A stretch of 64,000 bases of DNA. Source: Eledone cirrhosa (lineage: Eukaryota). Shown here piece by piece: positions 5,300 through 58,971 of this stretch. Where the stretch lies: positions 59,520,001-59,584,000 of the forward strand of contig OZ024744.1 in the NCBI GenBank assembly GCA_964016885.1. Reading direction: 5' to 3'. How positions within the stretch are numbered: position 1 is the stretch's first letter; each line of letters opens with the position of its first letter. Under the pieces are notes generated by a model. It saw only the letters and a list, made by a program, of their open reading frames with translations. It had not been told where the DNA came from and did no database searches. The position numbers were made by a program, and so were the translations under genes.

Positions 5300-6065
5300 T
5301 TTTCTATATTAAATATTTATACTCAGCTATGTATTGAGTACCTTACTTACTGTGGTTACCCCCGATTGAACCCGGGATAAACTTATATATATATATTTAC
5401 AGGCACAATCTAACTGTGACTAAATTTTCCGACGTGTCCTTTTTTAAAGATAGTAATCTGAAAGTCTGGTTTGAGGAAGATTCAGTTGTTATTTCTAGCA
5501 GGTCAAGAAATGACGCAGAAGCTCCACCGCCGATTCAAGATTCTGTGAAACATTGGAGAAATGTTTTTCCATGGGTATTAACGTAAAGTGAAACGACTTC
5601 AGCCAGGGATGGAATCGAGGTCACAGACCTGATTTGAGAGATGTAAACAAATCGAAACTTTTCCCCGATATCAGCATTATCTCACACATTCAGGAATGTC
5701 TCTCACATCTTTCCTTTGGTATTTAAAAAAAAAACAAAAAAACTTAGCTCTGCGTGTGACCCCCGAGAAAAAAATATCAAAAGAAAGATTGTTCAATCGA
5801 CTGTAAAGGACTTCGCAATATGTACTTGTGGGTAAGGGAAGAAAGGAGACATTGAGAGGTGTTAAATGGTTTAAATAGTTTTGAAATAGGATTTCTTAAA
5901 TTCTTGTAGGTTATCAGTTGTAGACGACCCCACCACTACCACCACCACCACCACCACCACAAAAAAACAAAACAAAAAAAAATAAAAAAACGAACCAACA
6001 CAACCAAAACACAGAATCAAATTCAAAGCTAGATAGCGTCAGCTTAAAAAAAGCGAGTAGTGTTA

Positions 6066-6604
6066 TCTTGATATATATAAAGGTCTATGTACATATGTCT
6101 GTTTGTATGTATGAGTGTTCCAAACTGTAGGCCACAGTTTTGCACCAAGGTAGCTGACATTTTATATAGGGACACATTTTCTTTAGATGGTTATAGGTTA
6201 TTTGACCTTTTCCCTGATGTTTTTTTAATAACTTTTAATGTCCACACGTAATCGGATTCAAGAAGACATTCACGACAAATATAAAACATCATTATGGCTA
6301 GATATTAACGTCTTTACTTTATCTTACTGCAACTTTTCACAAGATACTTTAAAGATTTGCATTAATTGAACCAGATGAAACTTCATTAGGAAGATATTGA
6401 AAACTAGAGAACAGCTCTGACAGCATAACAGCTTTAGACAACATTACATTAAAAATTAAAGTTTTTAGTCAACTACTGCAAATGTGTTCACTGTTAAAGA
6501 TACTATAAACGTTTGAATAAACCAACAAGTTTTAAAATATATTTTACTAAATCATTGCAGGATGTTAAAAGATAAACCCAAGCAAGAATGTATACAGCTG
6601 CTAG
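6066..6604 (+). mobile_element. Non-autonomous Helitron
   Basis: A|TC...CTAG|T termini. Confidence 0.55.
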
Positions 6605-7011
6605 TATAAAATAAAAATATAAATAAAAAAAAGAAACCGTAGTCGTTAAAACAAAAAAGAAAAGAAAAGAAAAATAATTGAAGATTGTCAACGATGCGTG
6701 AGTGCTGGATTATAGTATGTAGTTAGGACAAATTTATATAGGGAGGTTCTGGAAGACACTCTAAGGTATCCACGCTCCGACACACTTTTCCTGCTCGAAG
6801 ATGTGTTACAGCCAATAAGTTCATCTCACTGTAAAATAAACATGTCTCTGCCGTTTTTGTTTTCACTTTCTGAAATTCTTTCCAACACAAACCTTTACCA
6901 ACGTATCAAATAAACAGACAGACAGATATATAGACAGACCACCAGCTTTCACACACAAGCACACACACACGCATGTATAAGCACACACACACACACATAT
7001 ATATATATATA

Positions 7012-8515
7012 TAAGCAGCCTCCCGTCCTACATCCTGGTCTGTAATGTTGGCACCTATGAGGCACCTATTATCATCTTAGAATACAAGATATTAAAAGGT
7101 ATTCAAATAATGAATAACATAATTTCAAATTTTATTTAGAATATGTAAATACAGAAAGTAATAAAGAAAAAAAAAAAAAAATGTATTCAACGAAAATTAC
7201 ATTTACAGAGCTTCTGTATATACAGTGTTTTAAACTGTTTGTTTTTTTGTTTGGAGCATATATGAAGAGTTTGTAGCGTCTTTTTAGTCTGGAATAACCT
7301 ACATACATTTGATCATGTGAGAAACATCCATCTTCTAGATGGAGACCAACAACCTACAGTGCCTAATTAATTGACTCTCACGGGGAATTGCAATCATTTG
7401 AAACAAAAGGGGACATCTGTTGATATTAGCTGTATTCTAGGTATCAATACGATGTCTCCCTTACCACACCCAGTGAGGATTTGGGCTTCGATAATGTGAG
7501 GCTGTAGTTCAGTCACAACCATATGCGTCCGATTGCTCAATCTTGACTGATCCAGGTTTCCGAGAAACATGACGACCGTACCCTTCTTGAATTCAGGGTT
7601 GTGTGGTTCCAGACTGTTGAGAAATCATGATGTTTTGAGCACTCCTTGTTGAAATGGTGGATTTCAAAATTGGGGAGCTATTGATTAATTAAGTTTACAA
7701 CAATAGAAAAATAATGAAAGATCGGAACATCCTCCAGGATTGTTTTTCTATAAATTTAAACATTTGAGAGGTGCTTATCTGTAACTTTAAGGTTCCCACT
7801 CACTCCCTGCTTCTGTTTTAGGAAAAAGGAGACGTTGTCGAGTAAGTCGGATGTTAGATCGGTTGAAATAAAACGAAAGAACCTAGAAAAAAAAAAAATT
7901 CCCTCTGAAGAAATCTACGATGATCGCCCCTCATCCCACCTCTACTGTTGATATACCAGCCGTGTTGGAAGTTGAGCACTTCGTCGGACATATTTCATTT
8001 TTGTAGTGCAAATAAGGCAGCATCGGAAACATTGTTGATGTATTTGCACACATACTTTACAGGCACCCGCCATTCCGTTTTCGAAAAAATGGCGAATGCG
8101 TGCATGTTGGAGGTCACGTTAGTTGAAAACATGAAAAAACCTAAGAAAAATATTTTTCATCGCAATCCTCAGCTGGTGCCTTTCTATAAATTTAAAAGGC
8201 TGAGATGCTTATCTGTAGCTCCAAGGCTCCCCCCCCCTCCGATTTCGGAAAAAGGAGTCGTTGGCGAGTGAGTGAGAATAACAACAACAACCATCTGTCA
8301 TTATAATTGCTGACCTTGTGCCAATAGTAGAAACAATTATAGTGAAAGTCTTTTTTCTAAAATCTGTGTTGCATTGTCGGACATACAGAAACACACACAT
8401 ACAGAGATACAGACACATACATACACAAACAAAAATATAAACACACACATTAATTATTATCAATTTTATTTAGTGTTATTAGCGGTCAACGTACAAAAAA
8501 ACTTCCTTTTTATAA
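7012..8515 (-). mobile_element. Helitron with PIF1 helicase relic (~7230-7610)
   Basis: Minus strand gives KKGTVVMFLGNLD...PHIIEAQILTGCGKGDIVLIPRIQLISTDVPFCFK.LQFPVRV; termini match 10445-11281. Confidence 0.85.
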
Positions 8516-56545: not shown

Positions 56546-56844
56546 GGAGAGTATACAAAGAGTATACGTAGCTGATCTCTCGGACTTTTAAGCGCTGAGA
56601 ATAAAGGGTTAATGTAAAGGCTGGTGTGTTCATGCACAGAGATGCTATAAACTAGCTTATAAAGTGGGTGAAGACCCTTAAAAGACGGACAAAGAAGCTG
56701 CCATCTCTGCGCATGAGAACATCATCCTTTATATTCCAGAAAAAGGACTTAAGCCCGATAAGTCGAACTTTCTTTCCCCTTTTCCATATAAAGCGTGAAA
56801 CTAATAGGATATTTTGTACCTCCCTGAACTATATATATGTGTGT

Positions 56845-57672
56845 ATTGCTCGCACATTGCTCGGTTTGTTGGGTTTTTTTCGCTGTTTTGTTACTGTTTT
56901 CTCTTTTCTTCCCTATTGCTTTCCTTCCCTCCATCTTCCGTTTTCCCAATAACTTACCCAGTTATTGAACGCCCTGGGCGGTAGATATATTGTCTTTAAA
57001 GCGTAGACATATCCGAAACCCCCAGTAGACAACTGATGAGGAGCCCCCCCTCCTTCTTGCTATCTTCGTATTCCCCCTGCATTTTAAGTTACCTTAAATA
57101 GCAGCTACACAGCCATTTCTTTTCTCCATATATTTCATGTGGCCATTCTTCTCTCCCCTTCTACCTACCTATTTTACCACTTTCTACTCTCACCCCTCTT
57201 TCTTCCCCTCCCTTTCTTCTTATCTACTCTTAGCCCCACTTTCTTCGTCTCCCTTTCTCCCTCTCACTTTCACCCCCTCGTCTGACCGTTTAGGAGTTCT
57301 CTTCTCACTTACAACTGCGGCGAACGGACGTGTGTCGCTTTCCTCTCGACCACTCAGTCTTGAACTTAAGTTCTCTTATCGAGTGGTCTTGGATTTCCTA
57401 CCTATTGTTGCTCGCATAGTGCTCGGTTTGTTGTTGTTTTTCGCTGTTTTGTTACTGTTTTCTCTTTTCTTCCCTCCTTCTTCCGTTTTCCCAATAACTT
57501 ACCCAGTTATTGAACGCCCTGGGCGGTAGATATCTTGTCTTTAAAGCGTAGAAATATCCGCGACCCCTAGTAGACAACTGATAGGACCCCCCGCCTCGTT
57601 CTTGCTTTCTTCGTATTCCCACTGCATTTTAAGTTACCTTAAATAGCAACTACACAGCCATTTCTATTCTTC
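56845..57672 (+). repeat. Partial tandem direct repeat (~280 bp, period ~560 bp) between TA runs; PLE pLTR-like
   Basis: 56845-57125 resembles 57404-57670; the spacer carries the CCACTC...TATCGAGTGG hairpin. Confidence 0.7.
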
Positions 57673-58971
57673 ATGTATCTATACATATATATATGTATAT
57701 ATGTATATAACGTAATATTATAATTTATATACACACACTGCTACAGCATTGAGTGCTCACATTGAAGCCACCTTCATTAATCAACAAAATGATTGAATAA
57801 CCTACACACACACACACACACATATTAATAAAAACAATGAAATAAAAACAAAGAACAAGTTCTTTATATTAAAAAATTCATCATTTTACGATCGTTTCTA
57901 GGATGTATATGTGTGTTGGTATGTATATCATATAGATCTATGTAAAAATATTACAAATTATCAGAGGAAATATACATACCTTCACATATGAAGACAGCAT
58001 ATATATGTGAAGGTATGTATATTTCCTCTGATAATTTGTAATATTTTTACATAGATCTATATGATATACATACCAACACACATATACATCCTAGAAACGA
58101 TCGTAAAATGAATTTTTTAATATAAAGAACTTGTTCTTTGTTTTTATTTCATTGTTTTTATTAATTTATCTTGACTCTGTTTTCCTATGATTTTCATCGA
58201 AAAATTTTGAATGCATCTTCTCTTTTCATGATATTTGGATTACATTGAGTTCTTCATACGGATTGGACACTCCCGTATATTTTGGTAGATTTACCGCTCT
58301 CATTTCGGAATGGTTTTGTATGGCATCAGTTTGTGATTTGAACTCGGGAATTTTATATTCTCCGAGAGAGAAGAGCCCTCTGAAGATTGCTCCCTTCTCA
58401 ATGGAAATCCGCTTGGATTTTCCGTTTATTCTGGAGCATGAAACTGCGGTAAAGGCACATATAGTAAGTACTGCGAATTTTAAAAAATTTATTTTAAAAC
58501 ATTTTCTCTATTTGCTAGACCTTGATTTCATATATATTTAAATATAAATAGAGAGAGAGAGAGAGAGAGAGAGAGAGAGAGAGAGAGAGAGAGAGAGTGT
58601 GTGTGTGTGTGTATGGGGGGGGGGGGCTAAGACGGAAACGAGAAAAAAGCAAAGAAACAAACAAAGAACATGTTGATATGTCAAGGAATTATTACGAAAT
58701 GAATTATGAGTGTCTCCTTCCCCCATTCACCCACAACCGATACCGCCACCAACCTCTTTGTCGACAGGTGTCATATAGAAATGACAACTGTTATTGATGG
58801 TTGACTGTACATGGTTTGGAACTGATGGAAACAATAATCAAATGGGTGATAATATCTTGTGATAATAACTTCCCCTACATGCTACACACACACACACAGA
58901 CATACACATATATGTGTAGGTATAAATATTCACATATATATATATATATGTATATATGTGTGCATATTATA

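Follow-up and report, generated by a model that had tools for sequence, protein, structure and literature searches.

The closest described relatives of the elements reported here are Penelope-like elements (PLEs) of the Hydra clade, defined by a GIY-YIG endonuclease at the C-terminus, a CxCX5C linker, the motifs DKT and RW[KR], CxxC and CxH around E/N, and no CCHH (Craig et al. 2021, PMC8557442; this and the other papers cited by accession are represented here by portions of their text). Hydra-clade PLEs carry hammerheads in their pseudo-long terminal repeats (pLTRs), insert into (TA)n targets, and have inverted 5'-truncated arms and a tail at one end. The (TA)n targets, the inverted arms and the tail at one end recur, together with predicted hammerheads that are canonical in part of the families, in elements of a 64,000-nucleotide stretch of the Eledone cirrhosa genome (the window: contig OZ024744.1, positions 59,520,001 to 59,584,000, forward strand), in which we describe a short covarying hairpin that follows the hammerhead and occurs in two copies. 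The portions of the Hydra-clade description at hand contain no such hairpin and no link between the tail and a duplicated signal, and give '<3 kb' and '30-40 bp' for Hydra, as against about 3.5 kb and a 79-nt tail in our family A.

The other close system is the Poseidon PLE PAc (Frangieh et al. 2024, PMC11167929). Once purified, it starts reverse transcription at two internal sense-RNA sites matching the ends of its tail, needs RNA to +172 although the start is at +111-118, and cuts and extends both strands, with a predicted dimer. It thus shares with the scheme that we propose for our elements two internal starts bounding a tail, a requirement for RNA 3' of the start, and the cutting and extension of both strands, the dimer being conjectural in our case. 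It differs in belonging to another clade, in that its binding motif is undefined ('AC-rich stem loop'), and in that no target homology is reported, whereas here 2-4 nt of TA are common to element and target. In the portions at hand, this one in vitro PLE study located the starts of the reverse transcriptase (RT) and not their signal. How PLEs choose an internal RT start, and why the tail stands at one end only, is the issue addressed here.

Short cis-acting hairpins read by an element's own RT are familiar from the 3' stem-loops of long and short interspersed elements (LINEs, SINEs) and R2, and from hepadnaviral epsilon, a stem-bulge-stem. Those signals are single and lie inside the copied RNA, whereas the Hydra hairpin occurs twice, is placed 3' of the presumed start and stays out of the product. 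In telomerase RNA, the template limit is set by a helix lying a few nucleotides away, and this boundary element stops synthesis 5' of the template; the Hydra hairpin is placed 3' of the presumed start, and the RT concerned is the sister of telomerase. We found no description of the hairpin in the open full-text literature, as distinct from Repbase and Dfam notes, subscription papers, figures and bioRxiv supplements, which lie outside that scope, nor in the portions consulted of PMC8557442, PMC4209133, PMC7229834, PMC3846280, PMC5737381 and bioRxiv 10.64898/2026.07.22.740005. The elements, their hammerheads and the tail are already known; the hairpin is a real, clade-wide and apparently undescribed cis element.

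The hairpin and its covariation

The hairpin has the consensus RCUC-Y...R-UH-GAGY-AC: a 4-bp stem, a 2-nt 3' bulge (UU, UC or UA), an upper stem and an unpaired AC. Hardly any variation is seen in CUC/GAG, in the U of the bulge or in the unpaired AC, and these letters suit read-out by a protein. The original prediction had proposed a covarying hairpin here and had the paired RCTC and GAGY arms right; the bulge below the upper stem and the unpaired state of the AC amend it.

Sites for counting covariation were picked by GAGYAC and position only, and 47 non-redundant ones were retained. GCTC was found within 50 nt 5' of GAGYAC in 56 of 65 sites (background 7.6%), and upper-stem pairing was seen, among the 47, only when the bulge is 2 nt. 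Upper pair 1 is kept in 44 of 46 hairpins (31 C-G, 12 U-A, 1 U-G; shuffle mean 36.0), pair 2 in 26 of 38 (shuffle mean 16.4) and pair 3 in 19 of 24 (shuffle mean 8.6); each beats all 2000 shuffles, and the double-sided changes span phyla, so the predicted covariation holds. A 30-row alignment, comprising 25 of the 47 sites (mainly short-loop and irregular ones omitted) and 5 from the E. cirrhosa genome, has 96.6% of its cells paired and double-sided changes at 4 of 7 pairs, and RNAalifold returns the same fold from it. In the first of the two copies, HP1 (family letters and the names HP1 and HP2 are labels coined in this analysis), the switch of pair 1 between C-G and U-A needs six changes on a tree of 29 proteins built without the published Hydra proteins (5-6 in bootstraps; strong branches force at least 2), so the covariation is not due to relatedness. 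The four-nucleotide loops, 17 in number, include 4 GNRA and 2 UNCG on the sense strand and none of the antisense-GNRA form. Rfam covariance models gave 45 matches in loci L152, L202, L208 and L214, none overlapping a hairpin, and none falls on a hairpin among the 150 of 272 matches listed for the window.

Two copies and two insertion ends

Metagenome contigs were scanned with protein alignment alone, and the best 80 of 131 confirmed stretches, in 79 loci, were taken. These loci hold 57 sense-strand matches to the motif and 14 antisense ones, about half of the latter being inverted or neighbouring copies, with 1-12 per strand in Markov controls. A hairpin lies at most 190 nt upstream of 22 of 24 open reading frame (ORF) starts; 16 of the 24 have two copies, located after the hammerhead and before the ATG. 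From 5' to 3' come the hammerhead, an interval of 47-66 nt, HP1, HP2 and the ATG, with HP1 and HP2 55-71 nt apart start to start in 13 elements and 79, 90 and 113 nt apart in families A, B and H2; the spacer between them is 35-48 nt. HP2 precedes the ATG by 13-25 nt in all 13 two-hairpin metagenome elements and by about 60 nt in family A. Among 49 metagenome hammerhead cores, the classifier placed a hairpin after 21, and reading added four strict ones that had been misfiled; six of the remainder lie at a contig edge, and most others stop at repeats before the hairpin position.

Ends were mapped on tandem copies that read through the apparent end into HP2 and the ORF. Insertions end at a conserved TA 2-9 nt 5' of HP1 (the tail-less, short end) or of HP2 (the tailed, long end). 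(TA)n junctions begin 0-9 nt 5' of HP1 or HP2 in 108 of 110 cases in family A, 36 of 42 in family B and 28 of 32 in H2, as do 13 of 17 short ends of family C relative to their hairpin; loci of families A and C were partly selected for HP1, which inflates their long ends and leaves the position of those ends unaffected. Junctions usually have 2-3 nt, TA(T), in common with the target. Five metagenome copies part from the read-through reference at -2, -3, -3, -4 and -8, the other metagenome rows in that comparison being indels or diverged relatives. A TA is present at -9 to -3 in 42 of 45 hairpins, with a peak at -6; five control windows have one in 17-21 of 45. The summed depth of contigs from one DNA run falls some 250-fold at L143:2967, which is 3 nt 5' of HP2; that run may be the assembly's own sample, and we do not count it as support.

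Each end falls 2-9 nt 5' of one copy, so the hairpin that determines an end is missing from the insertion there, and the distance of 30-60 nt to the (TA)n junction given in the original prediction is that of the HP1-HP2 spacer. Its enrichment is real: of 74 TAYYGAGY occurrences in 364 kb of unselected sequence (the window plus 30 ten-kb stretches), 19 have (TA)n 35-55 nt downstream, compared with 0-2 of 33-82 for nine control patterns and 2.5% for random positions. The distance is no ruler to the junction, and the PLE 'tail' is the stretch between two start points, that is, the HP1-HP2 spacer. Two-armed insertions combine a long and a short end in 24 of 25 cases at loci not selected for HP1 and in 18 of 20 at selected loci, where ends drawn independently at equal rates would do so in one half.

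Carrier elements, distribution and copies in the window

Long family A copies extend upstream into an endonuclease and a 723-aa ORF, which lies between two hairpin-bearing pLTRs in L143, L149 and L151. Its protein has the motifs CNCPDRSIC, DKT, RWR, CNLC and CKH and no CCHH; that of H2 has CNCTKPGTC, DKT, RWK, CKLC and CNH. ORFs or endonucleases of the same type, their proteins 30-60% identical to family A, are tied to families B (L102, L060), C (L173), H2 (L091-L097) and J (L120) and to the L129 family. By these motifs, family A and the linked carriers match the definition of Hydra-clade PLEs, with RT and C-terminal GIY-YIG in a single ORF; Pfam gave no match for two full ORFs, so the domain call rests largely on motifs read by eye. 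The carriers also have (TA)n insertion, pLTR tandems, an inverted 5'-truncated arm and a tail at one end. The families had been taken as unrelated in the original prediction; the linked carriers being all Hydra-clade PLEs, they are related. Naiad or Neptune, considered as a first identity of the carriers, was dropped when the upstream endonuclease proved to be of Hydra type, and the viral contigs searched held no Hydra-type locus.

The predicted hammerhead is canonical in families C and H and in the metagenome loci, has a variant core with a long stem II in family A, and is degenerate in B, E and H2. In family A the core is YUGANAA (U3-A8 type), with the full motif in L152:2705-2810; the hammerheads of B, E and H2 are more degenerate than this, though those families are young and abundant. 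Three further observations were made in passing: a chimera at L027:1100-1500 fuses the 3' untranslated region of H2 to a family A terminal segment; L278 holds a tandem satellite of about 58 nt derived from the HP1 region of family A; and a family in L072, L093 and L101 has GCUC-CAG...CUG-AG-GUG before (TA)n, like the variant 3'-end hairpin of copepod Hydra-1_Crog.

Three of six published Hydra consensi (supplement of PMC8557442, in the portion available) have the strict hairpin, namely coral Amil-2 and sea-cucumber Ajap-1 and Ajap-2; that of Ajap-1 starts 2 nt before HP1 and has HP2 ahead of its ATG. Copepod Crog and coral Amil-1 have a variant hairpin, and in the same portion none was seen in Obim-1. 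The top 30 loci for GIY-YIG (PF01541) belong to other PLE types, by motif Neptune-like for the most part; many have hammerhead-like cores, and none has TAYYGAGY followed downstream by (TA)n. Covariance-model matches in 30 loci (29 of these and L098) numbered three, all separate insertions by position or strand. String matches in the portions seen of the Naiad and Chlamys consensi, where line breaks can hide matches, were not hairpins. Among the elements tested, the hairpin is restricted to the Hydra clade, and the Neptune-type PLEs here are without it. One of these, L098 (minus strand), shows in its upstream and downstream pLTRs a long and a short end, both sharp and at (TA)n, separated by 68 nt and lacking GAGYAC; no signal shared by the two ends is evident by eye, and a clade-specific signal may follow each. 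A genome-wide double-hairpin pattern, with 572 matches against 217 in the control, was set aside, as its matches are mostly a 16-nt repeat of an unrelated long terminal repeat (LTR)-type element; in L275-L300 this repeat ends in GAGCAC, a chance match to the pattern.

Genome-wide (3.0 Gb), exact matches number 32,942 for a family A 26-mer, 21,053 for a family C 17-mer, 6,255 for a family E 21-mer and 560 for a family H 22-mer, with none for any reversed control. The sites of the window are as follows.

5252..5298, plus: type I hammerhead motif of a family C pLTR, predicted by pattern scan (CTGATGA core at 5256, GAAAC, stems III and I)
5321..5341, plus: HP1 of family C (covariance model 17.3 bits, E 0.06), with (TA)n from 5384
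15739..15823, minus: HP1 of family E, long loop, ACUC-UGU...ACA-UU-GAGU, by fold and relatives
16762..16787, minus: HP1 of family A (Hydra-clade PLE) in a two-armed insertion (model 31.4 bits)
16811..16835, minus: 3' half of a predicted family A hammerhead (GAAAC-stem III-GUH), its 5' core lost at the inversion
18657..18682, minus: HP1 of a family A subfamily in a two-armed insertion (30.5 bits; arms 18688-18748 and 18752-18812)
20192..20213, minus: HP1 of family H with a cUUCGg tetraloop; longer relatives have a canonical hammerhead about 45-50 nt upstream
20353..20374, minus: HP1 of a family C subfamily, with a degenerate hammerhead upstream near 20440
37254..37301, minus: HP1 of family B (GCUC/GAGC, long loop) in a two-armed insertion (arms 37306-37358 and 37398-37450; (TA)n 37198-37217)
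50210..50237, plus: inverted 5'-truncated arm of a family A copy, beginning at the short (tail-less) end
50284..50309, plus: HP1 of family A, with the long end 46 nt on, at (TA)n 50356
50451..50471, plus: doubtful site GTAGAGTAC, about 46 nt before (TA)n and without a matching RCUC arm
51954..51974, minus: HP1, ACUC-CAG-AAA-CUG-UC-GAGU (16.2 bits, E 0.11)
57350..57387, plus: non-member; the hairpin is internal to a different family of tandem repeats, about 270 nt 5' of its hammerhead-like core and end
58174..58252, plus: HP1 of family E, long loop, by fold and relatives

The strings quoted in the original prediction are present where it placed them or 1-2 nt off, in numbers far above chance. 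Its hammerhead upstream of the hairpin is intact in the window copy only at 5321, where an A replaces the usual T at upper pair 1, and degenerate at 20353; the family A and B copies of the window keep at most its 3' half, owing to 5' truncation and inversion. The 16762 insertion (arms 16793-16849 and 16854-16910) has its long end at (TA)n 16704-16715, and its inverted arm stops at the short end near 16908. Family B has a Hydra-type endonuclease upstream in L102, and in L060 it reads through into HP2 and the beginning of the ORF; the arms of the window copy are separated by 39 nt (37359-37397, minus) that contain sequence matching that ORF start, which lies 3' of HP2 in L060, and this suggests a template jump at the 5' junction. 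One copy had been overlooked, at 51954-51974 on the minus strand; a relative of this hairpin lies after a Hydra-type endonuclease in L120. Two listed members fared worse. The site at 57350 falls out, since in most of 15 relatives it lies about 270 nt upstream of the hammerhead-like core and end of its own family. That at 50451 has the expected distance to (TA)n, yet it has no 5' arm, gave no fold and no covariance-model match, and its motif is absent from the single relative compared.

Other features of the window are recorded here in passing. The repeat around 57350 (57015-57600) is a tandem one of about 545 nt with GAAA before CUGAUGA, a permuted hammerhead-like core, ending at (TA)n, and is possibly a non-autonomous PLE derivative or a retrozyme. 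An element at 4599-5101, recurrent in other loci, has 135-nt inverted arms between (TA)n runs and contains TATCGAGTG without a 5' arm. An isolated hammerhead-like motif lies at 36997-37022 (plus) with no hairpin after it. Long spurious open frames arise from a 3-kb interrupted (TA)n array at 45332-48365 and from a 3.3-kb GGT-rich tandem array of 24-nt period at 52127-55481.

A probable docking signal and its alternatives

The hairpin is structured, covarying, duplicated and, among the elements tested, confined to one clade; it lies next to two end positions, with a TA at about -6, and goes with the pairing of long and short ends. We think it probable that it is a duplicated docking signal for the RT-endonuclease on the sense RNA, setting internal priming at the UA upstream. 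That a recognition signal positions the start of reverse transcription had been suggested, and the motif is indeed conserved, covarying and tied to the ends; what changes is that the signal is duplicated, with each end 2-9 nt 5' of one copy. We infer that RNA and not DNA is recognised, that it is the RT that binds, that TA pairing over 2-4 nt primes synthesis and, more tentatively, that a dimer employs both hairpins at once. By analogy with the Poseidon PLE assay (PMC11167929), the protein would bind one hairpin on the sense RNA and nick the (TA)n target, whose 3' end would anneal to the UA just upstream of the hairpin; complementary DNA (cDNA) would then be copied toward the RNA 5' end, the docking hairpin staying uncopied. 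Use of HP2 would give the tailed end, which contains HP1, and use of HP1 the tail-less end. The pairing of long with short suggests that a single event, perhaps through a dimer, employs both hairpins; the tailed arm would then come from HP2 and the tail-less one from HP1.

Several observations weigh against a docking signal of this kind. At the ends, 36 family A alignments stop away from (TA)n, the long ends of H2 scatter from -5 to -15, and the conserved TA agrees equally well with cutting by the endonuclease and with priming. Two of the 24 metagenome ORF starts have no hairpin upstream, and of the 49 metagenome hammerheads about four have variant hairpins only and a few have none. Families E and H have no ORF tie, and a search for a family E read-through found nothing; as most of HP2 is gone from the L173 read-through of family C, HP2 is established for neither C, E nor H. 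The lower three pairs of the hairpin are invariant and so contribute no covariation evidence, and the lower-stem R-Y pair is A-C in 2 of 45 hairpins. Wobble counts show no preference for the sense strand (sense G-U 2, A-C/C-A 5), and in 31-38 of 45-47 hairpins the predicted folding energy is better, by about 0.3-0.8 kcal/mol, for the antisense strand. Poseidon, finally, is of another clade and initiates without target homology (PMC11167929).

Some of these points would suit a signal at the DNA level, in which the GIY-YIG endonuclease reads the hairpin in single-stranded cDNA or a cruciform, cuts the adjacent TA and trims a longer intermediate to two ends. TA is found at the internal end site as it is in the genomic target, Craig et al. 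ascribe the tail to endonuclease-mediated resolution (PMC8557442), the D. virilis tail is required for endonuclease cleavage of plasmids (as cited in PMC11167929), and the antisense strand folds slightly better. We nevertheless regard such cutting as unlikely, given that the tail ends of the Poseidon PLE were reproduced in vitro as RT starts on RNA (PMC11167929), that the GNRA and UNCG loops are those of the sense strand, and that a bulged 4-bp stem is weak as DNA (mean about -2 kcal/mol). The slightly more stable antisense fold would also agree with a template-boundary element, the RT copying antisense RNA and halting a few bases before the helix as in telomerase; an antisense template has been proposed for PLEs (PMC3846280), and the PLE RT is sister to TERT. 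Against this, the constancy of the 3' ends and the varying extent of 5' truncation agree with sense-RNA priming, as do the Poseidon in vitro data (PMC11167929), and a stop at HP1 would need read-through in most copies, which makes a boundary element more improbable still.

Of a likelihood between these two is a translation or ribonucleoprotein-assembly signal for the hammerhead-cut, uncapped RNA, the ends being set by nearby TA alone. HP2 stands 13-25 nt before the ATG in every two-hairpin metagenome element, and in RNA viruses cap-independent translation can result from cleavage by a ribozyme (PMC13725137); yet TA is common in the spacers (17-21 of 45 control windows) while the ends use the hairpin-adjacent TA, family A has about 60 nt between HP2 and ATG, and the long-short pairing is left unexplained. 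That the hairpin is an inherited remnant or a chance palindrome with no current function, as its short lower stem and the relatedness of its carriers might hint, seems to us very improbable indeed: double-sided changes recur though the flanks are unalignable and the proteins 30-66% identical, the hairpin is retained in two copies, and the covariation and end data contradict it.

Returning to the docking signal, the candidate is a defined 20-30 nt with natural compensatory variants, and it makes exact predictions, namely a start about 6 nt upstream of each copy and one long and one short end per event. We also entertain, tentatively and at somewhat less than even odds, a further step in which two hairpins on one RNA dock the two subunits of a dimer, each priming from one nicked (TA)n strand at the UA about 6 nt upstream. 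If this were true, the head-to-head insertion in which a single arm bears a tail would be explained, the tail would be no more than what separates two portable docking sites, and a single 20-nt hairpin would suffice to start a telomerase-related RT on any RNA. PLE RTs are the closest relatives of telomerase, so such a contact with RNA is of evolutionary interest. For the E. cirrhosa genome the motif is of use in annotating tens of thousands of repeats, whose element boundaries it marks, and for PLEs the docking-signal reading would account for the optional 'tail' long seen on them.

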